Source: Candidatus Saccharimonadota bacterium
GTDB lineage: Bacteria; Patescibacteriota; Gracilibacteria; BD1-5; UBA2023
Direction of reading: 5' to 3'
Assembly (NCBI GenBank): GCA_046350815.1
Contig: JAXLZO010000001.1
Location: 30,001-62,000 of the forward strand
Length of the DNA stretch: 32,000 nucleotides
The notes under the pieces were generated by a model. That model did no database searches. It saw only the letters and a list, made by a program, of their open reading frames with translations, and was not told the DNA's origin. Numbering within the stretch: the stretch's first letter is position 1; the number at the start of each line of letters is the position of its first letter. The translations under genes were made by a program, and so were the position numbers. This document shows positions 1 through 26,226 of the stretch, piece after piece.

Positions 1-32
1 AATCCTTCAGAAATATTTCTGAAGGATTTTTT
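1..32 (+). terminator. Rho-independent terminator-like hairpin at the window edge
   Basis: Stem 1-13 (AATCCTTCAGAAA) pairs perfectly with 16-28 (TTTCTGAAGGATT) and is followed by a T-run at 27-32. It would terminate a + strand transcript entering from upstream of the window. Confidence 0.5.
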
Positions 33-52
33 CATCTGATGACTCCAATATA

Positions 53-336
53 GATCCTGAACTAAATTCAGGATGATAAAATACAACTCCCCCCTACTCG
101 TAAACTCATTTTTTCCTCATTGAGGGGGATCAAAGTTGAAGTTCTTTATTTCTTCCCCTCTTGAGGGGTGCCGAAGGCGGGGTGGCTGTATTTTTGCCTG
201 AGTCATTTCGAACAAAGTGAGAAATCCCTTCGAATTACCTTTCAGTGAGAATATTATATATAAGGGATCTCTCCTAATGTCGAGATGACGAATATAGAAG
301 AAAAAGTAGGTCCCCTTATCTACGCGAGGATAACAA
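53..336. repeat. Intergenic mosaic hairpin-repeat cluster A
   Basis: Modules: GATCCTGAA-n-TTCAGGATGA hairpin at 53-77. AAAATACAACTCCCCCC at 78-94. CCTCATTGAGGGGG at 113-129. TTTATTTCTTCCCCTCTTGAGGGGTGCCGAAGGCGGGGTGG at 145-185, which is an inverted copy of 15508-15549. GTCATTTCGAACAAAGTGAGAAATC at 202-226. A reversed GTCATCTCGAC..GAGATCC hairpin at 265-289. A degenerate reversed copy of the 25-mer at 311-335. The stretch 53-122 is about 85% identical by eye to 25208-25277. Confidence 0.8.
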
Positions 337-354
337 ATTCACCGCAAAGAATCC

Positions 355-1671
355 CTACCGAAGTTCTTCAAGAACTTTATCTCGAATAGTATAATTTTCG
401 TATATTTTTTGAAACATACTAACTCATGGAGAAACAACAGAATTAACCATCATCATTCCAACAACATTCTTTCGTTGAAATATGGAACCAAAACTTTGAT
501 CTATAGAATATTCTTCCATAAAAGGCATATACGCTTTTCATTTGAAAAAACCCGACCACTCAAGACACCGCCATGAATCTGCTGGTAAATTATCTTGTCC
601 ATAGAGAATCTGAAAATAGCAAGCATCAAGCATTTGTTGTGTCTCTCTTCGATCCAGAGTTAGACGACCAAACCACTCGCTCAACACATCTGAATCACGG
701 GTCCAATCCTGTGGCACACCTGCCAGATCAAGCGTTTGATTCACTAGTTCATTCGTCTGATAATACTCAAACTGCCATGCACGCTGCTTTAAATCTTCCT
801 TAGAGACGATAGGCACAAGGAGTATTTCTTTGATTTGAGACCTTGAAACATCAGACAATTCAATGTTATGAAGGATATAAGAGATTAAATTGAGACTGTA
901 TTTCTCAGAAGCTATCATAATCATAGTTGGAACCATATTCGTCGTTCCTTCTTTCATTTTTTGACTAAATCAGTAGAGAAAGAGAGTTTTTCTCACGCAA
1001 TCATCCTCTCGATCTGCAAGACAATCCAGAAGTGCACTATAGCTCACATTTCTCGCAAATCTCTGTATTCACTCCTGAGGCATGCCCAGAGTCAAGAGAG
1101 AATCTTTATCACGAATATCAATTTTTGGAAGAACGGGAACAAATTGATATTGACTCATAATTTCCTCCATCTTTGGTATGATCTCATCCAAAGATGTGTT
1201 CAATATGTCAAAAGATTGTTGGTATTCTCCGGAGAGATATTGAGACTGAATAATGCGAATTTCATCAGGCGTTATGAAACGATTTTTTGGTGAACGTGCA
1301 CCAAAAGGCTCAGAAGAAAAAAGAACATTTCGAGAAACACTTCAATTATCAATATCAACGCTCGTACTTCCACCAAAAAGAAGATCTGATCATTCCATTT
1401 GACATATTTTCTGATCAATATTTATTTCGCTACAATGCTTCTTGCGAATATTCTGAAATTCCTCAGAGTAGAGCTTCTGGATAAGAAGATAACCATTTTG
1501 ACCATCCGGAATTGGTTGTACCTGAGGCATAAGAGATCCTGTATCCACATCAGGAATATTGAGATCCACATTGGAATTCCAAGCAAAAATACCAAGCCAA
1601 ACGACAAAAAGAAGAGCTGGAAGCATCAAGAGAACGATTAGGATTCTTTTAAGAATTTTCATACAAAACAT
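355..1671 (-). CDS. Hypothetical membrane-anchored protein (438 aa), last gene of the pilus operon
   Basis: Track ORFs 1390..1671(-) and 538..957(-), plus unlisted segments, are one frame joined through in-frame TGA (e.g. 1390-1392, 970-972, 538-540, 424-426). The true stop is TAG at 355-357. The N-terminus MFCMKILKRILIVLLMLPALLFVVWLGIFAW is a signal anchor. The ATG lies 10 nt after the pilT stop. I recognise no family. Confidence 0.6.
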
Positions 1672-1681
1672 ATATTATAAA

Positions 1682-2767
1682 CTACATCACACCATCACGA
1701 ATCATCTGTGGGTTATTTGCATACTTGAGAGCCTCATCAAGAGTGATTTCTCAGAACTTCACTGAATCAATAAGATCATGTTCCAGCAGCTGCATTCCTT
1801 CAGTTCGTCCTGTTTGCATGACGGATGGGAGTTGATGAAGCTCATTTTCACGAATAAGATTCGCGACCGCGGCATTACGAATAAGTATCTCTTTTACCAT
1901 TTTAACACCATATTGATCTTTTTTGAGAAGGAGACGTTGACTAAATACCGCTACAAGTGCTTCAGCAAGTTGCACACGAATTTGATTCTGTTGATCACCT
2001 GGAAAAGCATCGATAATACGAGTGATAGTTTGATACGCATTTCGAGTATGGAGAGTCGAGAATACGAGATGCCCTGTTTCTGCGAGCTTGAGAGCCATTT
2101 CAATCTCATTCTTAGTGCGCATTTCTCAGAAGAGAATAACATCCGGGGTTTGTCGCATAGCACCCATCAATGCTGTCGTATAATCAGGAACATCTTGACC
2201 GATATCCTTTTGTTCTACGATAGAGAGTTTGTGAGGGTGAATATACTCAATCGGATCTTCAATAGTAATAATATGCTTGTAATATCGATTATTGATCTCA
2301 TTGATAAGAGCTGCGAGTGTTGTAGATTTACCAGATCAGGTTGGTCCCGTGACGAGCACTAATCATTGTCCCACTTTCACAATATCCTCATAAACACGAG
2401 GGAGTCCTAATCCTTGAAGCGTTGGCATATCTCCAGAGAGAAGACGCAAAATTACCATGTGTGAGCCCATTTGAAATGAGAGATTTCCACGAAATCGAGA
2501 ATTTTGAAAACTGAATGCAAAATCAAGATTTTTGAGCGTGAGAAGTTTTTGATATTGCTCTTCATTGACAAGAGATTTTGCAAAATTTTCCGCTTCTTTT
2601 TGCGTGATCTCAGTCATTCCATCTTTGATGGGCGTGATCACACCACCAAGTTTGATAGATGGAAAAGCTCCTACGGTATAGTAGAAATCTGATCATTTAT
2701 TATCGATCATTACTGAGAGAAGTGCATCGCGAAGAGGATATTCGCTCAAGATAGTTTGGAAAGACAT
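1682..2767 (-). CDS. pilT: Type IV pilus retraction ATPase PilT (361 aa)
   Basis: Stitched from track ORFs 2363..2641(-) and 1751..2122(-) plus flanks. Walker A is GPT[TGA]SGKST with TGA at 2336-2338. Other motifs are PDVILF[TGA]EMR with TGA at 2126-2128, ETGHLVFSTLHT, and the C-terminal ITLDEALKYANNP. ATG is at 2765-2767 and stop TAG at 1682-1684. Confidence 0.9.
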
Positions 2768-2778
2768 AAAAAGAAAAA

Positions 2779-4008
2779 TTAAAGATTTTTAGCTACCTTA
2801 CCGAGTTCAAAGAATGGCATCATAATAGCGAGCACAATAACACCAACCATACCACCAACAACAACAATGATAATAGGCTCTAGTGCAGACATGATATTCG
2901 CAACATACTGTTTGAGTTCTTTCTCATAAATAATACCAGTATTCTTGATGCTGTTCGATACCGCACCAGTTTCCTCACCAACATTGATCATATAAGCAAG
3001 ATCCTCCGTAAAATATTTACTCGTAAAACTAAACTCATTTTTACCGCGAGAGAGTCACATGGATTGAGAGAGCTTCATTCATGCTTCTACCTCATTCTTC
3101 ATACGAATGATATCACGCTTGAAATGAATATTTGGAACAACCTTTGCAGTAATAACCAAAGCCTCAAGCATGAGAATGCCAGAATTGAGAAGCAAGGAAA
3201 GCGATGAAATAAAGAGAATAACATTCATCTGCTTTTCCATCCAACCAAAAACTGGGATCTTGAGGGAAATGCGATGAAGCCATATCTGCCCGTAATACGT
3301 TTGTCGGAAGAAATGAAAACCAACGATCAGTGCTACAAAAAACGAAAGAAGAATGATATAGTGATTGCGCATAAAATCAGACACATCGATCATAAATTGT
3401 GTAAGTGCAGGAAGTTGCACTTTTGCTTTTGCAAATGCCCCAGTAATCTTCGGAAGAATAAACACCAACATGAAGATCACGAGCGAGAATGAAAGAAAGA
3501 TGAGAATAGCTGGATATACCATCGCACCACGAATCTTCGAAGTAATCTCAATTTGTCATCGGAGGGTCTCTTCAAGATCTGTGAGTACTCTCGGAAGAGT
3601 ACCGGTTTTCTCCCCTACCTCGATCAATGAAATAATGATAGGATCAAAATATTTGCTATAGTTCTTGAGAGACTCTGATATAGGAATACCATAATCAAGA
3701 TTCTGATGAGTAGATATGAGTATATCCTTGAGTTTTTGATTCTTGATCTGCTTTGAAGCAATTCCCATGGCTGATTTAATATCAATACCCGAAGTGAGAA
3801 AACTCGCAAGTTTTGATATAAAGCGCCATACTTCTTTTTTACTAATACCGCCTATTTGTATCTGAAAATCAATATTATTATTTTGTAGAGATTTTCCTTT
3901 TGGTTGCTCAAGTTTGCTGCGTGCATTTTTGAGCAGCTTATAAAACAGTGCTGGATCAAATGAACCATCGCTGCGATAAAACTTGTGCGAACCAAAAGGA
4001 AATTCCAT
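2779..4008 (-). CDS. pilC: Type IV pilus platform protein PilC / GspF family (409 aa)
   Basis: Three same-frame track ORFs (3556..4008, 3079..3522, 2779..2991, all -) are joined by TGA at 3556-3558 and 3079-3081. The sequence shows the duplicated T2SSF architecture: GIPISESL..FDPIIISLIEVGEKTGTL and AYMINVGEETGAV, with hydrophobic TM segments. The real stop is TAA at 2779-2781. Confidence 0.85.
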
Positions 4009-4037
4009 AAAGTAGCAAGAAAGTTACAGATAATACA

Positions 4038-6020
4038 CTAGAGAGTGGTACCATTTTTTGAAATCAGATTAATACACTCTCGGATAACAAAGTCATACTC
4101 TCATTTGTGGTAGAGCTCCAGAAGAGTTTTATATTTTTCCCTCATCTTGATCTCTTGTTTTCTCTGAAGGGCATGTTCTTCGTTTTTCACCACCTCTTTG
4201 AGAAAGAAAACAAATTTTGGATGGACAAATCCATCACGATAGTTATTGAATACAGCTTGTTTCAGTTGGGTATACTCTCACAGACGAAGAAGTTCGGTAC
4301 ATTTGGCAAGGCGGATGCGAAGCTCCTCTTTTTGCTTCTTTTCTGTTATCATCTTTGTGATTTCTTCCTGAGTTTTTCAGCGAAATTCCACTTTTTTGGC
4401 TTCACGGAGATTGATTGCATCCAATGATTGAAGAATCTCTTTGAATATGGCATCATCTCGAACGATATCACGTTTCTCATTTCGCTCGAGAAAATAGAGA
4501 GATACATCATCGAGAAACTGCTCCTGACCCATAAATTTTCCTACAAAGAGAAGAGCATCTTCAATTCGATTTTTCGATTTCACTAATTCCATAACCATTT
4601 TCTGAACACGATCAAGTCAGAAAAGTTCTCATTTTTTATTACGTGCTTCAGGGATACCATCAGTATAACCAAAAATAATATCATCTTGATGGAGTACAAG
4701 AGGCTTTTTGTGGATGGAATCAAGATTGAGAATTTTTCGAACACCGAGTGCAAGTCAACCAGGAATCACCTTCTCCACTTTTCTCATGTTCGCACGATAT
4801 ATATAGAGTGGATCATGACCTGCTCCAATATAATAAATCTCTCGCTCTGAGTACACATATTCAAAGAAGATTGCTGTAACGAACATTCATCATTTGAGTG
4901 TAGCTTTTAAGCTATTATTGAGCTCAAACACGAGCTCTTCAAATGAGTATTTTTCAAAACGAACTTTATCAAAGAAGAGATTTGAGAGAGCTGCAACAGT
5001 CAATCCTGCTTTTACCCCATGTCATGTTGCATCTCAAAAATAGAATATCGTACTATCCTTACGGTGAAAATACCCAAACGTATCACCAATGACTCCATCT
5101 TTTCCAAGTATGCGCCCCTCAAAATTAAACCCTGGAAGTGAGAATCACTCCACATCCTTGATAGTACCATGCTGGATAATATTGAGTGCTGATTCACTAT
5201 TAGGATCGATGTTTCCATCTATCAGGTTCAACGCTCAAGCCTTTCGTAGAAGATCCTCAATAGATCGTAGATTCTTCGTACGGCTAATGTAATCACGATA
5301 TTTTTCCCTTCGTTCCTGAAAGTCATGATACATTTTTCTTATGCGTTCAAAAAAACCAATTTTTTCCTTTTCTTCACTTGTTCAAAGAGAAAGTGGATTT
5401 TTTATCGCATCATCACTAAATTCCTCTTTGATCAGAGCATCTACTTTTGCATCAATAATTTGAGAACCTTGTTGAGTATTCTTATTTTTCTCAAGTGCTT
5501 TTTGTGCATATTCAACCAGTGAAAATATAAGCTTCGATTCACGAAACTCGACACTGAGACGCTGTGCATACTTTACCGCTTCAAGATATTTTTTTGCTCC
5601 CACATAATTCTTCACTACCTTCTTTCCACGACTATAAGCAGTTGCCTCTCTTTTTTTAAACTCTTTCTCGAGAAAATATTTTTTCTTGCGAGAAACTTGT
5701 TTATCAAAAGAATCAAGCCTCTCAATATTCTTATCAAGATCCTTTATGGCATTACGAGACAATTCCAGCAATTGTTTTGCTTGAGCGGAGATTTTTGGAA
5801 TATTCGAAGAAATCAGTGGTTCATTCGATGCGATCATGCTACGATGATAATCTATTGCCTGATTGATTTTTGTACGAATCTCAAGAAGAGCTTTTTCAGC
5901 ATTTGCATAATCATTTGCACGAATATATACTTCGATCCACTCAAGCGCACTATTAAAAGTCTTCACACTTTCCTGAGAAGCATTTTTTGAGCGAAACCGA
6001 TGAAGAAAAGAGAAAAACAT
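4038..6020 (-). CDS. SpoIIE/PP2C-family serine phosphatase with long helical N- and C-terminal regions (about 660 aa)
   Basis: One frame runs from ATG 6018-6020 to TAG 4038-4040, reading through about 10 in-frame TGA (e.g. 5382-5384, 4377-4379, 4278-4280, 4101-4103). The core matches RsbU/SpoIIE motifs: GDTFGYF, FYFGDATGHGVKAGL, MFVTAIFFEY, YIGAGHDPLYIYR, IIFGYTDGIPEARN. The flanking regions are K/E-rich and look like coiled coil. An alternative GTG start at 6068 would overlap the pilB 3' end. Confidence 0.75.
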
Positions 6021-6028
6021 GAAGGTGA

Positions 6029-7270
6029 TTAAATCAATTGAAGAGCTTCTGAGAGGGTAGTTTTTCACATAATTGCCTTAATGAGACCATCTTGTAGTAT
6101 CGTGAGCATACCTTGTTCACGTGCCTTACGCTCGATATCAATAGCACTCATCTTCTCGAGAATCAGGGGATGCAATTCTTCGGTGATAGTGAGCACCTCG
6201 TGAGCAGCAATGCGTTTTTGATATCACGTATTATCACACTGATCACATCAGACTTTTACAGCAAATTCAAGATCACCAACTTGCTCATCACTGATAGCCT
6301 CTAGTTGCTCTCGTATGAGCTCTTGTTTTGCGTTATCACTTATTTTTGCATATGCTACACAATTGGGACATACTCGACGAATCAATCGCTGTGAGACAAC
6401 CATTTTTAGAGCCGAAGCAACGAGGTATGGCTCAATTCCCATATTTACCAATCGTTGTACCGTAGCAGATGCAGAATTGGTATGGATAGTCGAAAAAACC
6501 ATATGTCCAGTGAGCGCCGCCTCAATTGCCAACATTGCCGTTTCTCGATCGCGAATTTCACCAACCATAATAATATCAGGATCTTGACGCATCATAGATC
6601 GAAGTCCTGCGGCAAAATCATATCCTATCTCTGGTTTGACCTGACTCTGATTCACAAAAGGCATATTGTACTCGACTGGATCTTCCAGTGTTGAAATATT
6701 ATATTCAAGCGGCTTGAACTCTTTGAGCATGGAAAAAAGCGTGGTTGTCTTTCATGATCCTGTTGGACCAGCGATGAGAATAATGCCATAATGACTTTTC
6801 ATACTCTCACGAATACGATCAAGGTTAAGATCCATGAAATCAAGTCGATCGAGTGACAGCAAAGAGGAATCCTGTCGAAGAAGACGCATTACAATCTTCT
6901 CACCATATACAACCGGTAGTACTGAGACACGAATATCCACTGTCTCTCCCATTTTTTGAGAGATATATGCAATCTTTCCATCTTGCGGACGGAGCTTTTC
7001 ATCAATTCGTAAGCCAGAAAGCACCTTGATACGAGAATTAATTTTGGTGTATTCTTCATAGTTGAGCTTATCAATATAGACAAAATCACCATTTTCACGA
7101 TAACGGACAAGTACATAGTCATGAGTGCACTCAATGTGAATATCCGATGCACCACCTTGCAAAGCAAAATCAAAGAGCTCATCAGTATAACGCACCGTAT
7201 CAGTGATATTGGTTTTGATAGCAACCGTTGCAAATTGTTGTTCATCCCGAATGTGTTGTAGTGTGATCAT
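6029..7270 (-). CDS. pilB: Type IV pilus assembly ATPase PilB / GspE family, short form (413 aa)
   Basis: Track ORFs 6752..7270(-) and 6248..6730(-) plus a tail are in one frame. Walker A is GPTGS[TGA]KTTT with TGA at 6752-6754. Other motifs are MRQDPDIIMVGEIRD, TGHMVFSTIHTN, the tetracysteine CPNC..[TGA]CDQCDNTGY, and the C-terminal G[TGA]KTTLSEALQLI. Stop is TAA at 6029-6031. Confidence 0.9.
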
Positions 7271-7364
7271 AGAGTCAAAGAGTAATATGTCCTTGGAATT
7301 CTACCATATCTTCTTAGTTTACGCAAAATGTCGCCTTGCAAAGGAAGATAATCTGTTTGCAATT

Positions 7365-7394
7365 AAAAAACCCTCTTTTTCAAGAGAGTTTTTT
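7365..7394 (-). terminator. Rho-independent (bidirectional) terminator after the pilin gene
   Basis: AAAAAA-CCCTCTT-TTTC-AAGAGAG-TTTTTT. On the minus strand this gives a 7-bp stem with one G.U pair, followed by a T-run, 19 nt downstream of the pilin stop. Confidence 0.7.
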
Positions 7395-7412
7395 ACAATA
7401 ACAATCGGATGA

Positions 7413-8015
7413 TTAATAAGTTGAATGATGACCAACATCATTATGCACGATTTCACCAGATGCAGAGTTTGCTCGGGCAATAAGTCCCTTTGCACCATTA
7501 CCACCTGTATCAGCAGTAAAATTACCCTTTACATACACTGTTTCAACATCACCATTCATTACTGTAGAAGCAACTTGAAGTGCCGAATTACTAGATGTAC
7601 TAGCATAACCAACAAGAGGAGCACTCTCTGAAGATGTAGCATCACCCATATCCGCCTGAGCAATACCTGGAATTGCTGACCATTGTGGAGCTCCAGCCTT
7701 GATAGTAATAGAAGTAGCGCCGGTATTACCAAATACTGTTTTTCCAGTACCAACTACAATCGTTCGACCAGTAGCTGAACCACTATCAATAAGCGTAGTC
7801 ATGTCAACTGCTGTTGCACCCTTGGTATTCATAGCACTTGAGAGGAGACCCATATTCTCACGAACCTTCGCGGACTTAGCATCCTTTGTATAGTTCTGAT
7901 ATGAGAGGAATCCAACTGTTGCAAGAATTGCAAGAATCGTAATTACCACGATAAGTTCTACGAGAGTAAAACCACCTTTTTGACTCTTGAGAGCCTGCAT
8001 TTGAGAGAGCTTCAT
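7413..8015 (-). CDS. pilA: Type IV major pilin (200 aa)
   Basis: The class III signal [14 protein letters not shown]|[25 protein letters not shown] is the N-methylation motif (G/FTLxE). The rest of the protein is Thr/Ser/Gly/Ala-rich. There is no in-frame TGA. Stop is TAA at 7413-7415. The start is trimmed to the ATG at 8013-8015 rather than the track start at 8105. Confidence 0.85.
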
Positions 8016-8076
8016 ACAATATAATGATAAAAAAATAAAATTGTAGAAGGTTGTAGCATTCGCTGCGTACAGAGGC

Positions 8077-8105
8077 ATTATGGCAGATAATGAAAATTGT
8101 GTCAA
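8077..8105 (-). promoter_or_regulatory. Sigma70-like promoter for the pilin gene
   Basis: On the minus strand: TTGACA (8105-8100), a 17-nt spacer, then CATAAT (8082-8077). It sits about 60 nt upstream of the pilin ATG. Confidence 0.45.
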
Positions 8106-8316
8106 AAAAAACGTTATTCTTTTTGGAAAAAGAGGAATTTATGATTGTTTTGGTAAAAAAATTATGGTTTCTTCCACTCTTGATGAATGGTGGAATCTTA
8201 AGTATTTGCGACCACAGGGAATGATAGAGTTAGTATTCTATGTTCTTCCTTTAATACACCCACACAATTATAATTTAAGCACAATCATATATGCAATGTA
8301 AATACCAAAAGAGGAA

Positions 8317-8490
8317 GATCCTGAAACAAGTTCAGGATGACAGATAATTTGTTGTCATCCTCGCGGAGGCGGGGATCTACCAATTCAGCAAAGTCTGAGA
8401 TATATTTTCGTCCATCCAGAAGATTCACGACTTATCGCATCTATGCGATTTGCTGCATTCCCTATGGTCACCTGTCTGCACGGGAATGAC
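8317..8490. repeat. Intergenic mosaic hairpin-repeat cluster B
   Basis: Modules: GATCCTGAAACAAGTTCAGGATGACA at 8317-8342. The perfect 25-mer GTCATCCTCGCGGAGGCGGGGATCT at 8354-8378. ATCGCATCTATGCGATTTGCTG at 8434-8455. ATTCCC..CGGGAATGACA at 8457-8490. GGATGACA (8335-8342) and TGTCATCC (8353-8360) are reverse complements, so adjacent modules can also pair with each other. Confidence 0.85.
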
Positions 8491-8533
8491 AGATTTTTAT
8501 GATTTGACTTGAAAATCGAAAATTACCCGATCT

Positions 8534-9277
8534 TTATTCTTTCAAAAGAGCTTCAAGAGCCTTGTAAGCTCTCGAGAAAGGAATAAATGATGGGGAGGTT
8601 GCAATGGTAATAAGTCCAGCCCTATCAAACAACGACCGTACAAGAGGTATGCTATGCGACCATGGAATATAAGAAAGATCTTCACTCCAATAATCCAGAT
8701 CTATATTGAGAATATATCCAGATCGCCATTTTGAAATATCTCGAATGCACTCCAAATCATCTTCTCATTCCACTCGAAGAAAATCACCAATATAACCATG
8801 ATCGAGAAGCGGCCGAATATAATTTCCAACATTACAATACCTATGCGCGTATTCCCACCAATCAAGAGAGAATTGGCTGAAAAAGTCCTTAGGAATATTT
8901 TTATTCTCCCAAAGATCCGAATGTTCATCGATATGAATACATCAAACTCATTTTGAAAGCAATCCTTGATCAAATGCAATTCACCAAGCATGTGCTACCG
9001 CATTATGATTATCGCAGAGAACAACGGGGACTCATCCCATACAATCAATAAGACTCTTTTGAAGTGCAAAAAAAGAATCTGTTTGACTAAGACAAAAACC
9101 AATCTCCGAGGACTCACGTACATTTAAAAGTGAATCACGCTGATATTTAGGAATAAAAAGTTCTCTTGGCGGGTCAATAAGTTGACTATTGCCAGAATAA
9201 CTCATAACATATTTTCCACCACGATCTTCATTTAAGAGAGATTGAATGAAGACTTCAACCATCTGACCGTCTATCAT
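8534..9277 (-). CDS. Hypothetical protein, possibly UPF0489/arginase-fold like (247 aa)
   Basis: Track ORFs 9032..9277(-) and 8534..8755(-) are joined in one frame through TGA at 9032, 8981, 8948, 8942 and 8765. Motifs are VVLCDNHNAVAHAW and CIHIDEHSDLW (HxDxHxD-like). Stop is TAA at 8534-8536. The family assignment comes from motif memory only. Confidence 0.5.
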
Positions 9278-9810
9278 ACCTGAGGATCAAGATGTGCAAG
9301 TATGGTCGATACTACCTCATCAGGAGCAATCAAGGTTGTATCAACTGCTAAGTCAAACACATGTTCTTGAGGTGGAAATGGAATATGCGGATAGATTTGT
9401 GCATATCTCTCTGCATTTGCGTTATTTCTCGAATTTGTCTTTTGTGTTGCTTCTTCGACTGATAAGCCCTCACGTGAAGCGATACGATCCATGAAAACCG
9501 CATCATCTCATGTAAGTACAATCTTGTAACTATCAGGAATCCAATGCCATGCAAGACGGCTCTCAAACACAAACCCTTCAGTATTTTGACCATAGGATAC
9601 AATCCGTTCATCAATCTCATGATCCACATGAGGATGATCTTTTATATACTCACCAAACTCATAAATATCCATTCCATGATCGTGAGCACATTCACGCATC
9701 ATAGCACCAGAGGATTTGAACTCATATCCAAGCTTCTCAGCAAGAAGCTTTGCAGTAGTCGATTTACCACTTCCCTCAGGTCAGTAGATTGTTATTTTAG
9801 ATTTATTCAT
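9271..9810 (-). CDS. cmk: Cytidylate kinase, short (archaeal-like) type (179 aa)
   Basis: MNKSKITIY[TGA]PEGSGKSTTAKLLAEKLGYEFKSSG contains a P-loop. The rest reads ..VDHEIDERIV..FVFESRLAWHWIP..IASREGLSVEEA..ERYAQIY..FDLAVDTT. Track ORFs 9508..9702 and 9274..9492 are joined by a TGA. The gene ends GTA TGA TAG, with the true stop TAG at 9271-9273. Confidence 0.75.
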
Positions 9811-14179: not shown

Positions 14180-15187
14180 CTACTGACTCAGGTTACCTTG
14201 ACATGAACTTACGATCCTGATATATACATAATCTTCCATGGAACCAACCGAACCACCCGTGATCATCTGTCTCTGAATATCATTCACGCACATCATGAGT
14301 CTTGCGAGACTTTTAACAGTGTGTTTTCGCTGTATGAGTTTATCGAGAGGATATCTCTTCACACCAAAAATCCCACCGTCAAGATCTCTTCTTGAACCAT
14401 GTGCAAGCAGATCCAGTGCTGCAATATATTTACGAAGTTGGGTTCGGAGGCTGGGTAACACAGACCACATCATACCCATATCACAGAGTCCATACCAAAG
14501 TCTTGCAATTTCTTGAGCATTTCATCAAAGTATCGCATCAAGCATCTCATAGACTTTGAGATCAAGAGATGGCTTGTATGTTCGACTCACTTCTTCAATC
14601 GTCAACGATCATGCATCATCATGATAGCCAAGATGATAAAAATTGAGAGCCTGCTCCGTCACCTGAGATGGAAGAGACATCAAATAATCTAATACAGATC
14701 AAGAGATATTGGGAAGTAGTAATTTTGCCTTTGCCCGAAGCTCAACACCCGAGAGAACATCAAATGACTCGATATAAGCAGATTTTTCTATCCACTTAAA
14801 AAACGATGATTCGATAGAACTACTATCCCCTACTACTATAATCTTTGCATGGTTAGGTATTTGTGTAATATCATATTTAATAGCTGGTGTTTTTGATCGG
14901 CCTGTGCTGGATTCATCATCAACACCCTCCTCATCAGACATATCTTTTTTGGGAGATTTTACCGCTAGAGAATAGCGTGCGATAATAAGTTTACAATCAG
15001 AAAAAAGAGGCATGGCTCTTGCTTCAGCAAGAATATCTTCCCAAGTTGGCGCATCAAGCGATACTACATTGTGCTCACCATAATCTCATGAAAAATCCTG
15101 GATAACAGCTTCGAGACGAGCAAAAAGATTATCCGTATGAATCCCAGTATAGAGTGTGAGCGGCGAAGAAAGAGGAACGGTATTCAT
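14180..15187 (-). CDS. holA: DNA polymerase III delta subunit-like (335 aa)
   Basis: Track ORFs 15086..15376, 14699..15013 and 14180..14479 (all -) share one frame and are joined by TGA. The layout is HolA-like: PLTLYTG..., LDAPTWEDILAEARAMPLFSDCKLII, LKVYEMLDAIL[TGA][TGA]NAQEIARLW. Stop is TAG at 14180-14182. I chose the start MNTVPL at 15185-15187. The ATG at 15226 is an alternative. The track start at 15376 would read into repeat cluster D. Confidence 0.65.
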
Positions 15188-15302
15188 AATAGAAAGTATA
15201 TGAAAATTCGAATGTTTGTCATACATAATGAGACAAGATAGGAGAAAGAGAGAGCAACCCACCAGTCCACTCAATGACGGAGAACAATACAAACAGTTGT
15301 AG

Positions 15303-15549
15303 GTTCCCATCTTGCACGGGAATGACACAAATTTTATGTCATCCTCGCGGAGGCGGGGATCTACAACTATCGACACAGCAAGTTCTTATCATTGAAATGG
15401 GTTGAATCTGATATTTTTTTGATTTGAAAGCTCTATTGAGAATGCAAAAATAGTAGATTCCCGTCTACACGGGAATGACAAATAATTTAAAATCCGCATA
15501 CGTCACTCCACCCCGGCTTCGCCACCCCTCAAAGAGGGGAAGAAATAAA
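15303..15549. repeat. Intergenic mosaic hairpin-repeat cluster D
   Basis: Modules: GTTCCCATCTTGCACGGGAATGACA at 15303-15327. The perfect 25-mer at 15338-15362. GATTCCCGTCTACACGGGAATGACA at 15456-15480 (form ATTCCC-N8-GGGAAT). CCACCCCGGCTTCGCCACCCCTCAAAGAGGGGAAGAAATAAA at 15508-15549, an inverted copy of 145-185. Confidence 0.85.
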
Positions 15550-15550
15550 T

Positions 15551-15584
15551 AAAATCCCTACTCATAAAATAAGTAGGGATTTTA
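15551..15584 (-). terminator. Rho-independent terminator after the giant surface-protein gene
   Basis: AAAATCCCTACT-CATAAAATA-AGTAGGGATTTT is a 9-bp perfect stem with flanking A and T runs, 15 nt downstream of the TAG at 15599-15601. Confidence 0.75.
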
Positions 15585-15598
15585 AGAATCATTAGATA

Positions 15599-18500
15599 CT
15601 ATTGCACCGAAGTAACTTTTGTCAGATTGTACTGCTTGAGGAAGTCACTCACAAGTGGTGGTGGATCTGAGAGTACTCGGGAAGAATAATTCACCAGAAT
15701 TCCTGTCACGATACCACTTGAAGCACTACTACCACGAGCATAGGTACGAGCTGCTATCAGATCTGCAGCATTACCATAGAGACTACCATTGATGATCAGT
15801 TGAGATCATGATGGTTGTCACTTAATATGGTTCGCAATATAAACGCCATCCAACTGTGTCACATTTGTTCAAATTTCAATTTCATCTGCAATAAATGCAA
15901 CCGAATTATTACCAGCTGTTATGTTGCCATTAATGGTCAATTTCCCATTAATCACATAGGTAACCTTTTGAGGGATTATCACTGTATTTAAAGTTACATC
16001 CTTATTTTCAGCACGTACCATAGATGTTCCGGTAGGTAGACCAGAGAATAATCATGGCTGATGAGCTCAGGTAATATTTTTCAAATCAAAATTTGAATTA
16101 GATGTATTCGTATTTTTAGCATTACCAGTATTGAAGTTTGCTGCCTTGAGTTGCTCAAGAAAATCCTTAGCAACTGTATCAATATCAACTGTTTGATTCG
16201 GATTTGCAAAGTATCCGGCACCACCTGCATTGTTTGCAATGATTGGTCGAGTTACACGAATATTGATAGCACCAGGTAAGCGCATATCGTTATCTATATC
16301 ATCACTAGGTTGTTGCAAGGTAACATAAAAATCAAGAAATGGTTTATTTGGGTAATTGACTGTTCGATAAGCTGCATTTTTCAGATTGTTCGTTTGTCCA
16401 TAATCAGCCTTTCAGGCATCATTCCAACGATTTGGATCAGATGGCCAATTAACTATAGGCAATCATTTATGTTGATTCAAACGAGCTGAATTATTTTCAA
16501 AGTCACTGAAATTCATAAGTGGCTCACAAAGTTCCCACGCACTACCATTCCACCGAGAATTAAATTGATTCGGCTGATCTCATGGATTTGCATTTCCTAT
16601 ACAACTTTGATTCAACGTTTGGCTCCATGCATCATTCGTAATGAAATCTCATTGACTCTTGAGAACTATTTTAGATCCAGTAGGTGGAGCAAAGATATAT
16701 CCAGGAGATCGGAGATTGAGTTTATCTTTCTGTCGAAACACTGGAGTATTCTGCCCAATGATCATACTATATGTCCCAGATCAAGTAATATTCTGCCCAT
16801 TAAACAAAGTAAACTCTCTGGATGGACTTTCTGCAGGATTGATAGTAATAGATGGCAAAGTACAGCTCATCGGTTGAGTACTAATATCAAGTCCTATCTT
16901 ACATTCTCCAGGTGTTTTAAATCTATCAACGTAAACACCATTACATACATCGTATGTGCTTGCTGTTATAGTTTGAGATGGTGATCATGGTTTACCACAA
17001 TATCACCACTTGCTTGGATCAGAAGCATAGACAGAAGGATCACACTCTTCTCCAGCATCAAGGCGACCATTTCAACATACTAGTGAAGGATCTCCGCCAG
17101 TCTTACATTGATTAAATGCTCCTGGACGTCCACAGGCACCCCAGTTTACTGCAGATCACATATCACACGTTTCACCAACCTCAAGTGTACCATTTCCACA
17201 ATATGGATTTGATATGGTATTTGTGATCTTACATGTTGTGTCATTCGTATCGAGCGATGATGCGTAGTTTGAATATTCAGCATTATAGTTCCGTCCTACA
17301 GCGATTGGAAAAACTGGATAGTTTGAAACAATACATTTCACATTTTGAGAACCTGGACGATCTGGATTGACTGGAAAGCTCGCGGGATTGCCATGAGAGA
17401 AATCACCAATATAATCAATCACATTGTCACCATCACGATCCACTCAAAATGATCGAGCTTGAGCATTTCCCTGACAAGCAAATGTTGTGTTGTTAATTTT
17501 TGCTACAGACATACATTGAAGCTGGCTTCCTCCTCAACAGATTCCTGTACACCCAGTCTTCAATACCGCACTATTACAATTCGTCGTATCTCCACCAGCA
17601 AGAGTCTTTGCAGCAGATTCATTTGCATTCTCCACACACGCTGTATTTGTCACTGTTGTATTTGCACCAGCAGTTACACGCATAGGGATAAGAATCTCTG
17701 GCAACACATTTATACCAACAGAAGGTTGACCATTGAGATAGCAAGAGAGGATTGATCAACTACTTGCCGAACAATTCCATCCATTCGTCGTGATAGCTGC
17801 TGATGTACGCTCTACTCCAGCAGGGAAAGTATCAGATACAAAAGTTGTACCATTGATAGCAGCCGGGCCATTGTTAGTAACGACAATACGATAATTGAAG
17901 GTAGCTCCGTTTGCGAGATCGATCGCTGTCTCTGCATCATCACTATTGATGTACTTACGAATCGAGAGATCAAATCCATCATTCACTTTGATACAAGCAG
18001 GATCACTCTGTGTGTCAGCTGCACGAGCAGGACATCCAGTATCAGGAGGCAAAGGTGGAATGGTCGTTGTACAAGCAGGATTGTCTATGAGAGATCCACC
18101 ACTGAGAATCTTCTTCGCACAGACATAGGCAATATTCTGATGAAATGATCCCGATGCAGCAGATGCCCGAAGCTTCGCAATGATCGTAAAATTATACGTA
18201 CTACCGGACGCGAGGACATTATCTGTCTGATGCATCACTACTGAGTGAGTATGACCACTGTGTGTGGTAGTTGTCGATCCTGTCGACCATCCAGCTGGAG
18301 CTGATGCAAATCGCACAAATTCCACATATTCTGGAAGTACGTCTTTCACGATCGCACCATTCACCGATCCACTCGAAACCTTGACTTGGTAGAGATAGTT
18401 GAACTCTGTATCACGAGTAACGTTCACCGCACTCGACTCATTCTGAGAGTCACCGGCAGGCATAGTTCCAGCATATTTTTTGATAGAGAGAGTGCCTTGA

Positions 18501-20791
18501 GAGGTTGGAGTAGAGGAGATATGAATAACTGCTGGATCCGTGTTATCTGAAGTATTTATATCACCAGGATTTGATACTGTCGCTGAGTTGGTGATATATC
18601 CGCTTACTGAAGTGCTGGTGACTACAGGAATGTTGATAGTCTGAAATGTTAACCCAGATGCAATATTACCAGTATTGGTACAAGTAAAACTATTGCTAGC
18701 CTGAGAACATGACCATGTTGTGCCAGTCACATTACCCGAGAATGATACTCCTTCCGGAAGTGTATCAGTCACTGTTGTTATACCACTTACACTTGATGGG
18801 CCGTTATTCGTCACAACAACCTTATAGCTGAAAGTAGCAGAATTTGTCTTTTCAATAGCACTACTATTATTTTGAGCATCATTTGCAGGAGCTACGCTAT
18901 CGACATATTTCTTGAGAGAAAGATTGAACGTGTCAGGTATTGTTATTGGTTTACAAGATGTTGCATTACAACCACCAACTCACCAACCAGATTTTGAAGG
19001 ATCGTTTGGATCACACTGCTCACCTTGAATACCAGAAGTAACAAGATCTGTGTCGATATTCGTATCTACGATGCCGTCGCCACACCAAGTGATTTCATAC
19101 TTGGCACATTCTTTATGAACTTGTTGTGAACTTGATCCTATTCGATAATAAATTCCATAGTCAATTTTGAGATTCTCAAAAGAACGAACAGCTGGACGAT
19201 CAATGATATGATATTCTGTCTTTGATTGAATAATCTCTTGATCTACAGTATTGTTAGGGACAACAAAGGATCGATCTCGAATCCAAGGAGTCCATTCAAA
19301 CTCAAACTTTACATTTGATCTATTATAATCAGCCGGCTCTCGAAAAATAGCGGTAAAATTATTGAGAGTAAGATTATTTCACGTTCTATTCGTAAGCTTA
19401 TCTGTAAATCGAAACGTTTGTCCAACTCGGAGTGATCATGTAAATGTCTGGTTACACGCAAGAGAGGTAATGTCTGTTTGACATGTTGCGGTACAATATC
19501 CATCATTACCATTATTAGTACCATTATCACATGACTCATTTCCTTCTTTCTTTCCATCACCACAAACTGGAGTTTTTGTGTAATTTGCAGAACAAGATTG
19601 AGTACCTGATGTATTCTTACATGACCAAGTAAAGTTTTGTGTTAAACCTGAAGTACTACTGCTGAAGGTATCAACATTTCCTACAGAACAAAGATTTGGT
19701 GAATTTGATGAGATAGTTCCATTAAGAGCCCCAACAGAGGTTCAACATTGAGGTGATGGTTGAGTGATATTTGTTAAAGTACAGCTTGTAGTACACATCT
19801 TGCCAGAGGTTACACCATCATTACCATCACATGACTCAAGTCCCTCTTTCTTTCCATCACCACAAACTGGAGTTTTTGTGTAATTTGCAGAACAAGATTG
19901 AGTACCTGATGTATTCTTACATGACCAAGAATAATTTGTCTTCAATCCCTGATCTGTCATGCCAGTAGAGCTACTAAAAGATACTACCGAACCTCATGTA
20001 CAAAGATTTGGTGAATTAGAATTTATAGAATTTATAGAATTTGTAAGTATTCCAGAAGTAGAGCCACAGACAGGTGGTAACTTTGCTGTACAACTTGCAT
20101 TACAGTATCATGGTTGACCATTGTTTATACCATCGTCACAGGATTCTGCTGTCCAAGTCTCACCAGGTCATACTGTTGAATCAGTAACACCATCACCACA
20201 CCAAGTAATAATATATGGTTGACATTCGGTGTGACGAGGGAGATTGACCCAATTATCTGCAGACACTTCTTCTTGTGCCTGTACGAAAAATTTGATAAAA
20301 ATATCAGCCGTTGTATCACGACTAAGTGGATGATCATAAACATTATAATAGCCACCATATTGAGGGCCACGCGAAGGTGCATAGCTCGTTAAAATTGGTA
20401 ACCGTGAATTCCCAGGAATAATCATACTACTATCAACTATCTCCTGAGTTCTAAAAAGAATCTCACCCTTTCAATTACCAGTCCCATCAGAAGTTCCACC
20501 AAATACTGACGAACCACCGCCTGTACCACCACTCTCATTAAAATCCATGAGCTCGGAAATATAGTCGCGACCTAGGTCCGTAATCCTGTGCCTGTTGGAA
20601 GAGTTATTGATATATTCATCTCCAAACTTATAACGCTGATCATAGCGAAGATACAATGGGGAGAATGACTGGTCACAAGAAACTCACTCACCTGGATAGG
20701 CAGGTGCTGCGAGTAATCAGTATGGTGCAAAAGTAACTGCACCTATTCATAGGACCGTTGTAAGGGTGATGAATTTGAAAAAGTTTTTCAT
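15599..20791 (-). CDS. Giant secreted Cys-rich surface protein with CGDG-type repeats and DUF11-like repeats (1730 aa)
   Basis: Track ORFs 20471..20656, 20168..20425, 19742..19960, 17756..18814, 17156..17443 and 16067..16318 (all -) share one frame (top coordinate = 1 mod 3). Manual translation of the gaps found only TGA (about 28 in total) and no TAA or TAG between ATG 20789-20791 and TAG 15599-15601. The signal peptide is MKNFFKFITLTTVL.IGAVTFAP. There are two ITWCGDG..CD..N modules and repeated C.NTSGTQSCSANYTKTPVCGDGKKEG.ESCD modules. Three DUF11-like repeats occur, e.g. ATFSYKVVVTNNGPSSVSGITTVTDTLPEGVSF and ATFNYRIVVTNNGPAAINGTTFVSDTFPAGVE. Further modules are CGNGTLEVGETCD and CGNGRLDAGEECD. 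Confidence 0.8.
19545..19929 (-). repeat. Internal 300-bp-period tandem duplication inside the giant gene
   Basis: 19545-19629 and 19845-19929 are identical at all 85 positions at an offset of exactly 300 nt. Flanking sequence is similar but diverged. Each copy encodes (T/S)WSCKNTSGTQSCSANYTKTPVCGDGKKEG. Confidence 0.9.
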
Positions 20792-21030: not shown

Positions 21031-24000
21031 TTATAATAACATTGCTGACGATGTTTCTCAAGCTGTATTTGCTAGTGAAGCCTTTGTTTTTTCTTCTGCT
21101 AACTTTCTCGCAACCTCTTCTTTAGCTTGCTTTTCTAGTAATTGTTTAGCAGCCTCTTCTTCCAACAATTTTTTAGCAGCAGCATCTTTAGCTTGTTGCT
21201 CAGCCGTCGCTCAGAGAGCACTACTTACATCAACTCAACCAGTATTAGGAACCGCAGTACCAGATGGGATTTCCACAGCAGGTGTTCATGCTGTACTAGC
21301 TGGAGTAGTTGACACTCATGGTCGTGGCTCAGCAGCTCCGCCTCATTCAATAGTTGGTTTTGTTTCAGACTGAGTTGGTTTTGGCTGTTCTGGTGTTGGA
21401 GGGGTTGCAGGAATACTCTTTTGAATACCCGCACCGCCAGCCATATTCGTTTCTCGACCACCCTGCACACCAGCATCAGCTACCACATATCCATCAACTG
21501 CAGCAATAGTTGGAGTAGAAACCGAAGTAACCGTTCTATTATGCTTGATAAATTCAGGCTTTCCTATGAGAAAACTATCATTTGCACAGACAGAAAATTG
21601 TGCACGTGTGAATTTGAGTGGTTTTGCGAGTTTTACACCATCGATTTCCTCCTTTGCACCAGACAGAAGAGCAATAGCATCTTCTCGTGAAACATCTTTT
21701 CCAGTCGCTTTTTTAAGTGTCTCGAGAATAGCATCACGACGATCTGCAAAAGATTCACGGCTAAATGCAAGACCAAGAAGTGCCGCTTTATTTTCAGGGG
21801 ATAAAGCAGTTGTTTCCATCTGAGAACCCTTGATAACCTTTTCGATAGGAACAGCTATAAGCCCGCGAACTCCAACATTCTTTTGTGCCATACTTATGAT
21901 GGTGAAATAACCATCATTTGGTGAAATCTGCTCAACCGGTTTATCTTTTCATTCAAACTTTAATTTTGACAAACCCTGTTTCCACTGCACGCGATCAGTC
22001 GCTAACTCCGGACTGACAGTATCATTGATATCCCCAAAGAGACGGGCTTCATTATTCTGAAATGCATTTTGCTCATCTTTTTTATTATGATTTGCACGAT
22101 AAATATCCTGAAAATTCTTGCCAGACTTTGATCCAGCGTTTCGCATCTCACTATCGCCCATATTGATCGCAATAAGAGTATCAGCAAGATGGAGTAGTTT
22201 CTTTGGATCGTTTCATGCAGCTGCAAGGTCAGCTGCTAATTCTTTATTTCCTTTTTTTCCTGAAGCAAGTACTTGGAGTGATTTCTGAATAGACACAACA
22301 TCACCCTCCAACCAACCTCGTGTAAATGATCCAAATGCCTCTGTTTGCTCTCTCCGAAGTTCTTTTGCTCTTCATTCAGTAATTTTATACGACTCTGATT
22401 GTTTTTTCATATCACCGACAGCAATTTCTTCAGTCGTTTCACCAGATACTGTAGCACTCGGTGTAACTATTTTCTCACCTTCCTTGATAGAAAAGGTAAG
22501 GGTTTGAGTTCCATTAGGAGCAACACGAGCCTTGAAAGATATCTTGAGTGGAGCATCAGTCACTACCACCTGTTCACCATTTGCCTGAGTTGTAAAATTA
22601 AGTTTATCAGTAACTCAAGTAGTCCTTGCTATATCCCCACTAATAAATCGATATTCATATTTGTTATCAGGAAGCACCTTAGCTCGCACCACTCATCCAG
22701 GAAGTTTTACATATCCGTCTTCATCTTTAGTTGAAGAAAAATCGATAGATACATTACTAATGTCACTCGCGATTTTCTCAGCAAGTCATCTGTTTCCATT
22801 TTTCACTTCTACTCCATATTTATCAAGAACGATTCAGGCATAGACCGTAAGTGGTGACTCACCATGAAGGATTGATTTAAATCCGCCCCATTTCACCAGT
22901 CATTCAACTCACTTTACATTGAAACCCTCTGTGGAAGCAAATTCTATCATTTTGTTTTGTGATAGAAGATTTGCACAAGCTTCTTGAATATCAGCAAATG
23001 CAACGTTTTTTTGTGACAATTGACCAATTATATCACGAATAACCTGTTTTGAAGCAGCATCTGTAATCATACCATCTACAACACTCTGGAGTGATGCAAC
23101 ATCTTTAGTCTCACCGATTTTTTTGCGCATTACCTGAATCTCCTCATTCATCTTATGCTCAGCATCGTTAAAATTAAGACCGGCCCGAGCTCCAGTAACA
23201 TCAATCCCACCGCTTATCGTATATTGTCCCACTCCAACGCTTTTTTCCGCAAGAGCACTGGACTTACCATCACTCGTCAATTCATGTGTGTTGGCACGCA
23301 TATAAACATTGTTAAGTGCGATGGTATGACCAACATCAGGTATAGCTTTTACAACAGCAGCTAATTTTTTCTTAAAACCCTCTGGATTCTTACGATCATT
23401 CTCAGCAATTTTTTTCATTGCGACCGGATCCACCAAAAGTGCCTCAATGTATTTTTGATCGCCACCAGCAAGAACTGTTGCAATATCTACAGAGGTATCA
23501 TGCGAATCGGTAACCAAGTCTTGAACCATTTGAAGTTTTTTGGTAGCTTCCAGAATACCATTTCTGAGTTTCTCAGCACCAGCAGTATCCAGTTGTGTCA
23601 CGTCGAATCTTTCCTGCAGATCAGGAAGAAAGTTTGGATTATATGCTTGAGCATTTTTCATGAGAGTATAGAGCTGTGATTCACCCACAACAAACTTCTG
23701 AGATCCAGACGTAGAGTCAATTCCATAATCAGAATTAAAGACACGGATGAATTTCGTCCCGAGACCTTCTTTACTGCTTGCTTCAATACCAGCTTTATCG
23801 CCGTCAAGATTTGCAACCATCGCGATAAACTTTTGCTCAGGATTCTTAAGTTCTTGGATTTTATCTCATGATAGAGTTTCTCATTGTGCACTTAATGTTA
23901 TGGTTACTACAGAATCTGTTTTTTTTGCAATTTCAGTATTTACCTGGTTGAGATTATCTTTGGTAACCTTCAAGACCTCATTTTGATCTTTTTGCTTCTC

Positions 24001-24120
24001 ATTTGGTTTCAATTTCTTTAATCATTCATTCATTTGATGGTCAAAAGATGTCTCCCATACTTGAGGAGTTTCCGTTTTTTTGATAGGCTCTGGTCGATAT
24101 GGACCAAATTTTTCTGACAT
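21031..24120 (-). CDS. Large hypothetical protein with no N-terminal signal peptide and a Pro/Thr-rich plus Ala/Lys/Glu-rich C-terminus (1029 aa)
   Basis: Track ORFs 22909..23820, 22372..22569, 21949..22161 and 21343..21891 (all -) share a frame (top coordinate = 0 mod 3). They are joined by about 18 in-frame TGA with no TAA or TAG from ATG 24118-24120 to TAA 21031-21033. The N-terminus is MSEKFGPYRPEPIKKTETPQVWE. The tail reads PATPPTPEQPKPTQSETKP, then AEQQAKDAAAKKLLEEEAAKQLLEKQAKEEVARKLAEEK. Confidence 0.7.
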
Positions 24121-25559: not shown

Positions 25560-25632
25560 CTGTCATCAGTCTATCATTAGCCTATCATCAGTCTATAATC
25601 AATTTTTGATCTATCATCAATCTTTAATCTAC
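25560..25632 (+). repeat. Phased 11-bp direct-repeat array (Pho-box-like architecture)
   Basis: Units: CTGTCATcagt (25560-70), CTATCATtagc (25571-81), CTATCATcagt (25582-92), CTATAATcaat (25593-603), a 7-nt spacer, CTATCATcaat (25611-21), CTTTAATctac (25622-32). The last two units overlap the CHAP stop codon at 25624-25626. Confidence 0.85.
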
Positions 25633-26226
25633 ATAGATGTATCACTTGATAGCAGGATGATCTTTGGGGATTTCTCGGATGGTTACGGTGTTGAGTTTTT
25701 GATAGTTCATGTCTTTGATGATGATCTTGGTATCTTTGATTCAGACAACAATTCATACATGTCAGTAGTAGGGATTGTATCCATGTCATTCAAGCTGTAT
25801 GATAGCACCAACAGCTGGGGCTTTACCAGTAGGTACTCATTGAGCTTTGGCATTACGGATCCATTGGTTTGCATTTCATCTCCAGGTTACACTCTTGTTC
25901 TGTGCGACGAAAGCGGTACAGTTTCACCAAGAAAAACGGGGATTATGACCATGATCTTTGATGCGATACGTCTTGTATCATCCCGTAAAAGGATCATCAG
26001 TATCAAGAAGACTTTCTGATTTTTTTGGTATTTCTGAGTGAATACTGGCTCATGTTTGATACACTTCAGCAGGTAGCATAAAAGATGGAGCATCCGTCAC
26101 ATAGTGACCTCATACATTAGCCGGATGGGACTCAATGATCTGGAAGGCAAATACTTGAGAAAAGCTTACCATCACACAGATAAGTGTCGTTGTAACCGTT
26201 GCTATCGATCTCGTATAACTATTCAT
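25624..26226 (-). CDS. Secreted CHAP-domain peptidoglycan amidase/endopeptidase (200 aa)
   Basis: This gene is visible only with TGA=Gly, reading through about 11 in-frame TGA. The signal peptide is MNSYTRSIATVTTLICVMVSFSQVFA. The catalytic region is FSW[TGA]NCTAFVAQNKSVTWR[TGA]NANQWIRNAKAQ[TGA]VPTGKAPAVGAIIQLE...Y[TGA]HV[TGA]IVV[TGA]IKDTKIIIKDMNY, with the Cys...His layout of CHAP. ATG is at 26224-26226 and stop TAA at 25624-25626. Confidence 0.8.

Follow-up and report, generated by a model that had tools for sequence, protein, structure and literature searches.

In Pseudomonas aeruginosa the threonine-phosphorylation pathway PpkA/PppA/Fha1 acts on the type VI secretion system, and PP2C-kinase pairs of this kind control type VI secretion. 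In Bordetella, the RsbU-type phosphatase system BtrU/BtrV/BtrW controls type III secretion. For type IV pili, lineage-specific cytoplasmic regulators of PilB or PilC include PilZ-FimX, the N-terminal cyclic di-GMP domain of MshE and the cyanobacterial Hfq/EbsA; the kinase MasK of Myxococcus is reported to be another accessory cytoplasmic protein that tunes the pilus motor. To our knowledge, none of these is a phosphatase, is fused to PilC or is encoded between pilB and pilC. An RsbU-type phosphatase has been tied to type IV pilus motility, with an output other than a sigma factor, in the HmpU/HmpV/HmpW system of Nostoc punctiforme, at least in the accounts that cite the original work (Riley et al. 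2018, cited in PMC6495340, PMC8256260). Type IV pili are also thought to be the main tool with which episymbionts and predators belonging to the CPR (candidate phyla radiation, or Patescibacteria) attach to their hosts, move and take up DNA (PMC11452946, PMC8080830). Here we analyze a 32,000-nucleotide stretch of contig JAXLZO010000001.1 (the window), in which a gene for a SpoIIE/PP2C phosphatase of 660 amino acids (aa) lies between pilB and pilC. Since its active site is intact, its position between pilB and pilC is kept among relatives and it is fused to PilC in a sister lineage, this conserved phosphatase is probably an undescribed regulatory part dedicated to the pilus of very small bacteria that depend on a host.

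The gene is read on the minus strand, from an ATG at position 6020 to a TAG at 4040-4038, under translation table 25, in which TGA encodes Gly. Under the standard code (table 11) there is no long open reading frame (ORF) at 4038-6020 on either strand, and a standard-code reading was dropped since neither the table-11 ORF list nor the plus-strand translation yields a gene. Thirteen TGA codons lie in frame within the phosphatase ORF. Distant homologues have Gly as their most frequent residue at 10 of these sites (background Gly frequency, 6%), and both recoded Gly residues of the active-site motif GDATGHG are among the ten. Because the TGA positions align with Gly, table 25 was chosen and table 4 discarded. 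In six-frame translations under several tables, FYFGDATGHG could be read solely on the minus strand under table 25, with two of its Gly residues encoded by TGA; YIGAGHDP and GYTDGIPEA, which are free of TGA, were readable under all tables tried. The neighboring genes, and all related loci in which phosphatase and pilC are separate genes (split loci), read cleanly under table 25 only. We conclude that the phosphatase gene is real, and we place the organism in the TGA-recoded Gracilibacteria/Absconditabacteria group. A sequence-only reading of the window had proposed a 660-aa SpoIIE/PP2C gene between pilB and pilC. The code-25 ORF and its Pfam match (E = 1.5e-31) bear this out; that reading was silent on the strand and on the alternative code, both of which are now set.

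In the closest public relatives of the window, the gene is present solely as 'hypothetical protein' fragments of 122-140 aa, in genomes labeled Peregrinibacteria or Peribacteria. Survival of the gene only in such fragments suggests that the wrong code was used: the entries likely come from standard-code annotation of those genomes, which are possibly assigned to the wrong taxon too. Within the window, almost every gene is shattered by table-11 gene calling.

The Pfam SpoIIE profile (PF07228) matches residues 322-513 of the phosphatase at 110.3 bits against a cutoff of 25, over profile positions 3-191 of 192; no NCBIfam model matches the 660-aa protein. D313 (in GDTF), D330 (GDATGHG), D454 (TDG) and D504/D505 (DDVS) are invariant in 20 aligned family members, and the same Asp residues, together with H334, H402 and G455, are invariant in 11 forms fused to PilC. 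The sequence-only reading had named loss of the catalytic Asp residues as grounds for giving it up; all five are retained throughout these 20 members and 11 fusions. A profile search of the PDB, which retrieved the PP2C core alone, aligned the metal-binding motifs with their counterparts in the Rv1364c phosphatase domain, whose structure is solved, and a single-sequence PDB search with the phosphatase returned nothing. From the intact active-site residues, the protein is predicted to be a Mn2+/Mg2+-dependent phospho-Ser/Thr phosphatase.

To describe the fold, we used an AlphaFold 2 (AF2) model of a homologue, P0008, that is 33% identical to the window protein. The model has a mean predicted local distance difference test (pLDDT) score of 77, with block means in the core mostly at 74-94, and consists of long helices (residues 23-254), a PP2C sandwich (289-508) and a four-helix C-terminal region (545-649). 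Foldseek searches with this model returned the SiaA PP2C domain, SpoIIE, Rv1364c and RsbX (E-values of 1e-13 to 1e-11), followed by RssB (4e-11). Target TM-scores (template modeling scores) reached 0.76, and the top matches all belong to the RsbU/SpoIIE subfamily. The regions flanking the catalytic core, first put at about 250 and 130 aa of helical sequence, are modeled as helical on both sides of the PP2C sandwich, as had been supposed, while the lengths were slightly short: the PP2C fold is preceded by about 295 aa and followed by about 145 aa. Compared with Pfam at E <= 1, both flanks gave sub-threshold noise only, and a profile search of the PDB with the C-terminal domain likewise gave noise only. 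The conserved first ~100 aa bear the motif F..A..WI..Y......A....E...K. Pairwise identity is 37% over residues 1-100, 25-28% over residues 101-295 and 51% over residues 571-660, so that conservation in the final ~90 aa equals that of the PP2C core; by this measure, the C-terminal domain appears to be under selection.

We found no membrane-spanning segment in the protein (maximum 19-residue Kyte-Doolittle mean, 1.05), and since no hydrophobic stretch is long enough to span a membrane, the phosphatase is soluble. SpoIIE proper, the Bacillus sporulation protein, was considered as an identity and rejected: it is marked by a multi-pass membrane domain at the N-terminus and a central region that interacts with FtsZ, whereas the window protein has no hydrophobic segment and is flanked by helical domains unrelated to these. 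It counts as a family member through the catalytic domain alone and is no orthologue of SpoIIE. Among the relatives, several family members are much longer (P0063, P0080, P0079, P0069, P0074 and P0087-P0089), some of them with N-terminal extensions of 150-590 aa. In some extensions the helical hairpin motif of the N-terminal region recurs in several copies, roughly as F.DA..WI..FI....W.KA...I.E.K, and P0063 carries a tandem phosphatase duplication within one ORF.

A search of 5.8 billion proteins recovered ~27 full-length homologues; wholly called ones are ~650 aa long, and shorter ones are truncated gene calls. Two close relatives are 87-90% identical to the window protein and the others 33-36%, and scores then fall steeply, from 237 bits to the 72 bits at which generic SpoIIE proteins set in. 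When 1.84 billion representatives were searched exhaustively with a profile, the full-length matches formed ~30 clusters at 50% identity, and fragments were recovered as well. We define a family of PilC-associated PP2C proteins by full-length homology (N-terminal motif, PP2C core and C-terminal helical domain) combined with a gene directly upstream of, or fused to, pilC. The window protein has all of these features, and synteny or fusion was present in every phosphatase-bearing locus examined.

Eighteen other loci were compared with the window (L001-L003, L005-L008 and L088-L098), which range from 23 to 42% in GC content and from 28 to 92% in phosphatase identity. In all 18, pilC is directly downstream of the phosphatase gene, the two being fused in L090. 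Of the 15 loci with enough contig to show what lies upstream, 14 have pilB immediately before the phosphatase gene, L090 again being the exception. In most loci pilC is followed by a pilT gene of the same strand. Most intergenic gaps measure 1-29 nucleotides (nt). Between pilB and the phosphatase gene, the gap in relatives is 5-23 nt; between the phosphatase gene and pilC it is 1-24 nt in five relatives with whole gene calls, and 97 nt in L008, where the ORFs were read manually. When all ORFs of the loci were clustered, the only gene families found to co-occur with the phosphatase were pilB/pilT, pilC and pilins, and the clustered loci held no conserved neighbor besides the pil genes and pilins; pilin genes stand alongside the module in 12 of the 18 loci. 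Because gene order is kept across these divergent loci, a strain-specific insertion, which had been set out beforehand as the refuting case, is rejected.

As a control, a PilB alignment was searched against one genome per species (GTDB), which gave 80 loci with up to 7 kb of flank on each side. One of these, L008, is the single code-25 locus and the only one with the phosphatase. The other 79 form an outgroup of Saccharibacteria, Paceibacterota, other CPR bacteria, one Peregrinibacteria, proteobacteria and other phyla, and none of them carries a SpoIIE-family gene near pilB within up to 7 kb on each side. Outgroup gene order was pilB-pilC in 49 of the 79 loci and pilB-pilT-pilC in 23, consistent with the earlier statement that canonical pil loci carry no phosphatase. 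We conclude that the arrangement is a property of code-25 Gracilibacteria-type lineages and of standard-code relatives (one of them named Peregrinibacteria at NCBI), not of CPR pili generally.

In the standard-code relatives, phosphatase and platform protein form a single chain. Ten clusters at 50% identity, with lengths of 1026-1114 aa, combine SpoIIE and T2SSF domains (Pfam, all ten), and their genes translate under the standard code. Only one fusion has a public name, PCI25394.1, a 'hypothetical protein' of Candidatus Peregrinibacteria. The pilB gene is directly upstream in all four fusion loci examined (L101-L104) and in L104 overlaps the start of the fusion. Compared with the window protein, the fusion is 30% identical over 406 aa (E = 1e-39), covering window residues 251-642; the N-terminal motif is also common to both, and the corresponding region of the fusions gives a weak alignment with a C-terminal domain profile. 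A separate in-frame phosphatase-PilC fusion occurs in a code-25 genome (P0070, the L090 locus), where the residues surrounding the join are free of W, the code-4 rendering of TGA. This fusion is independent of the standard-code ones. Gene fusion is classical 'Rosetta-stone' evidence that two proteins act together, and with the whole protein fused to PilC in standard-code relatives, the coupling between phosphatase and pilus is stronger than the sequence-only reading had gathered from gene order.

An AF2 model of one natural fusion (pLDDT 74) places the parts in the order N-terminal helices, PP2C, C-terminal helices, linker and PilC, the C-terminal helical domain running into PilC through a low-confidence linker of ~8 residues. 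In the PilC/GspF topology the N-terminus of PilC is cytoplasmic. On this topology, the fused phosphatase has to lie on the cytoplasmic side of the machine's base, the docking site of the ATPases.

The genes around the phosphatase encode the core of a type IV pilus, namely an assembly ATPase, a platform protein, a retraction ATPase and a pilin with a class III signal peptide (Table 1). A hydropathy scan found hydrophobic transmembrane segments in PilC. The spacers on the two sides of the phosphatase gene are exactly as first given, 8 nt and 29 nt. The gene spacing suggests that pilB, the phosphatase gene, pilC and pilT form an operon; spacing is the guide because promoter and terminator counts do not exceed chance. 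A candidate promoter sits just upstream of the pilin gene, and as the total number of such sites is not above the shuffled expectation, only its position is suggestive. No terminator-like site was found within the intergenic gaps, and the terminator count is not above chance. The true start of the pilin is probably M22, near 8015. The window PilB is without the first ~170 residues of canonical PilB, TIGR02538 aligning over positions 171-559 of 564 only, and this missing N-terminal region explains why its TIGR02538 score of 433 falls below the equivalog cutoff of 676. It is 56-65% identical to the PilB proteins of related loci. Two Saccharibacteria PilB proteins taken for comparison are ~580 aa long, with the N-terminal region present.

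Table 1. Features of the pilus locus and of the phosphatase in the window.
Feature	Coordinates	Strand	Evidence or remarks
Candidate operon promoter, sigma-70-like	8077..8105	-	TTGACA-17-CATAAT with upstream TG, 11/12 matches; best in 1-9000
Pilin, N-terminal methylation motif GFTLVEL	7413..8078	-	Pfam N_methyl E = 6.4e-8
pilB, assembly ATPase, 413 aa	6029..7270	-	Pfam T2SSE E = 7e-111
pilB-phosphatase spacer, 8 nt	6021..6028	-	
Phosphatase, 660 aa	4038..6020	-	SpoIIE PF07228
N-terminal long-helix region, residues 1-295	5136..6020	-	
PP2C/SpoIIE catalytic domain, residues 296-515	4476..5135	-	Motifs GDTF, GDATGHG, TDG, DDVS
C-terminal helical domain, residues 516-660	4041..4475	-	
Phosphatase-pilC spacer, 29 nt	4009..4037	-	
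pilC, platform protein, 409 aa	2779..4008	-	Two T2SSF domains, Pfam E = 1.9e-48; NCBIfam GspF/PilC
pilT, retraction ATPase, 361 aa	1682..2767	-	TIGR01420 pilT_fam 395 bits, cutoff 319

Other genes of the window were recorded in passing. Directly 3' of pilT, a 438-aa ORF (355-1671, minus strand) has one N-terminal hydrophobic segment and no Pfam match, and it is not conserved at that place in other loci. Just upstream of the pilin gene lies a gene for a UPF0489-domain protein (8534-9277, minus). Further away on the minus strand are a CHAP-domain protein, a putative peptidoglycan hydrolase (25624-26226), and two long ORFs: one of 1730 aa (15599-20791), Cys-rich, with repeated CGDG-type modules and a hydrophobic, putatively signal-peptide-like start, and one of 1029 aa (21031-24120) with no Pfam match. 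Both may be giant surface proteins of the type typical of episymbiotic CPR bacteria. In the loci used for comparison, L002 has a methyl-accepting chemotaxis protein (15133-16752) ~3 kb downstream of the pilus operon, and in L007 type IV secretion genes (T4SS-DNA_transf and T4SS_pilin, 4775-9365) adjoin it.

We propose that the phosphatase is dedicated to the type IV pilus machine as a soluble accessory subunit in the cytoplasm, its gene being co-transcribed with pilB, pilC and pilT. It would dock at the cytoplasmic face of PilC through its conserved C-terminal helical domain, the PilC-proximal part of the protein. Docking through this domain is suggested for the split protein because the domain is strongly conserved and adjoins PilC in the fusions; in the sister lineage the same attachment would be covalent, by fusion to the PilC N-terminus. 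From there, the PP2C domain could dephosphorylate a phospho-Ser/Thr protein, located at the machine's base or at the interface between motor and platform, candidate substrates being PilB, PilT, PilC, the pilin, or a small partner protein encoded elsewhere. The state of dephosphorylation would then decide between pilus assembly and retraction. The long N-terminal helices might gate catalysis or dimerize, as suggested by analogy with the regulatory helices found in RsbU and SpoIIE. We put the probability that the protein is a catalytically competent, pilus-dedicated PP2C subunit, docked at PilC and setting assembly versus retraction, at roughly 50%. The wider proposal is more tentative and we lean against it as it stands: that pili of the Gracilibacteria class have a built-in Ser/Thr phosphatase on the PilC platform, free in code-25 lineages and fused in standard-code relatives, which acts directly on the motor or platform and so switches the pilus between extension and retraction, for example on host contact.

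Several observations weigh against this proposal. The 32-kb window encodes no Ser/Thr kinase, GHKL kinase or STAS protein, as judged by Pfam scans that covered most long ORFs, and precomputed Pfam lists show no kinase or STAS gene in the flanks of more than 20 loci, with up to 10 kb covered per side. The STAS domain is absent from the window Pfam scans and from the Pfam lists of flanking genes, and no HATPase or Pkinase family occurs in any flank. A crude regular-expression scan of ~220,000 residues of code-25 ORFs, a sample far too small to stand for whole genomes, found zero Hanks-type or GHKL kinase motifs. The model of the fusion has a predicted template modeling score (pTM) of 0.37 and shows no confident interface between PP2C and PilC, the short tether being the only connection visible. 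Co-transcription with the pilus genes is suggested by spacing rather than by transcripts, and the predicted fold comes from models of homologues rather than of the window's own protein. Finally, the arrangement is not universal in the sister lineage: L011, a Peregrinibacteria locus, has pilB and pilC without a phosphatase there.

The lack of nearby partners bears most directly on the possibility that the protein is the input phosphatase of a partner-switching module of the RsbU-RsbV-RsbW or HmpU-V-W type, with the STAS protein and the GHKL Ser kinase encoded elsewhere and the unphosphorylated STAS protein as the output, binding the pilus motor or a transcription factor. The nearest structural relatives (SiaA, SpoIIE, Rv1364c and RsbX) are nearly all partner-switching phosphatases, the profile matches to RssB and Rv1364c agree with this, and HmpU/V/W controls pilus-driven motility through a non-sigma output. 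However, in known partner-switching systems the STAS and kinase genes usually stand beside the phosphatase gene. Such a system is recognized by a STAS substrate and a GHKL Ser kinase or anti-sigma factor encoded with the phosphatase; here neither is encoded at the locus nor in the flanks of the more than 20 loci, and the conserved neighbor and fusion partner is PilC, not a STAS protein. We therefore regard partner switching as unlikely. A purely structural role is slightly less likely still. The protein could be an adaptor whose catalysis is irrelevant, replacing the N-terminal domain of PilB or a PilM-like scaffold and aiding the recruitment or exchange of PilB and PilT on PilC, with the PP2C fold as a binding module; a PP2C-like domain works as an adaptor in Escherichia coli RssB. 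The truncated PilB, the conserved and novel helical flanks, and a PilC fusion of the kind expected of a structural subunit all fit this picture. Yet the metal-binding Asp residues, GHG and TDG are invariant in split and fused forms at 25-50% overall identity, and a pure adaptor is hard to reconcile with an invariant active site, which is difficult to explain without selection for catalysis. The L011 locus also has a PilB that is equally short (405 aa), with no neighboring phosphatase, which weakens the idea that the phosphatase replaces a lost PilB domain.

SpoIIE-family phosphatases are usually stress or developmental regulators, so that the protein might regulate a non-pilus process, such as general stress or the cell cycle, and be hitch-hiking in a highly expressed operon; and as the ORF is absent under the standard code, it could also be thought an artefact of TGA read-through. 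Synteny, fusions and codon evidence contradict both versions: the position between pilB and pilC is kept in very divergent genomes, fusion to PilC is seen in two settings independent of each other, conservation alongside the phosphatase is confined to pilus genes, TGA stands where Gly is conserved, and every neighboring gene needs code 25. We consider an unrelated function or an artefact highly improbable.

Phospho-control of an envelope machine is a known idea, given the Hmp, Btr and type VI precedents. What is new here is a phosphatase gene inside the core pilB-pilC unit, with no linked STAS or kinase gene, with novel flanking domains, and with a fusion to the platform protein. In the literature searched on Gracilibacteria, Absconditabacteria, CPR pili and STAS partner switching, there is no mention of a pil operon containing a SpoIIE/PP2C gene, nor of SpoIIE fused to T2SSF, in agreement with the view that the arrangement was undescribed for CPR pili. 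The phosphatase is easily missed in annotation, being fragmented in the closest relatives and, in its fused forms, unnamed except for PCI25394.1. A conserved, intact phosphatase between the motor and platform genes provides a concrete, testable handle on pilus control in episymbiotic CPR bacteria, and the sister-group fusion to the platform strengthens the case for such a regulatory handle. The result would surprise pilus specialists, although the mechanism is inferred. If the proposal is true, the phosphatase would be a new kind of accessory subunit in the type IV filament superfamily, and this would be the first type IV filament machine with phospho-regulation hard-wired into its core.

Compared with known systems, the protein shares its catalytic fold and metal-binding motifs with RsbU, RsbP, RsbX, SpoIIE, P. 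aeruginosa SiaA and RssB, and Mycobacterium tuberculosis Rv1364c. Judging from the P0008 model, it also resembles RsbU and SpoIIE in having a helical region ahead of the catalytic domain. Unlike the RsbU/SpoIIE subfamily, it carries N- and C-terminal helical domains without detectable relatives and has no STAS or kinase genes adjacent, and unlike SpoIIE and SiaA, the window protein has no transmembrane segments. The output of the Hmp system is a STAS protein, and its genes form a locus of their own apart from pilB and pilC, whereas the phosphatase gene described here lies inside the core pilus operon, has no STAS or kinase gene nearby and is fused to PilC in relatives. With BtrUVW and PpkA/PppA it would share the use of a PP2C-family phosphatase devoted to post-translational control of one envelope nanomachine; BtrUVW and PpkA/PppA/Fha1 differ in serving other machines and in being encoded together with their kinase and substrate, and none of them is known to be fused to a core membrane subunit. 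Like PilZ-FimX, MshE, Hfq/EbsA and MasK, the phosphatase would be a lineage-restricted cytoplasmic accessory of the pilus motor. What sets it apart from the RsbU/SpoIIE subfamily as a whole is that its gene is embedded in a pilus operon or fused to the gene of the pilus platform.

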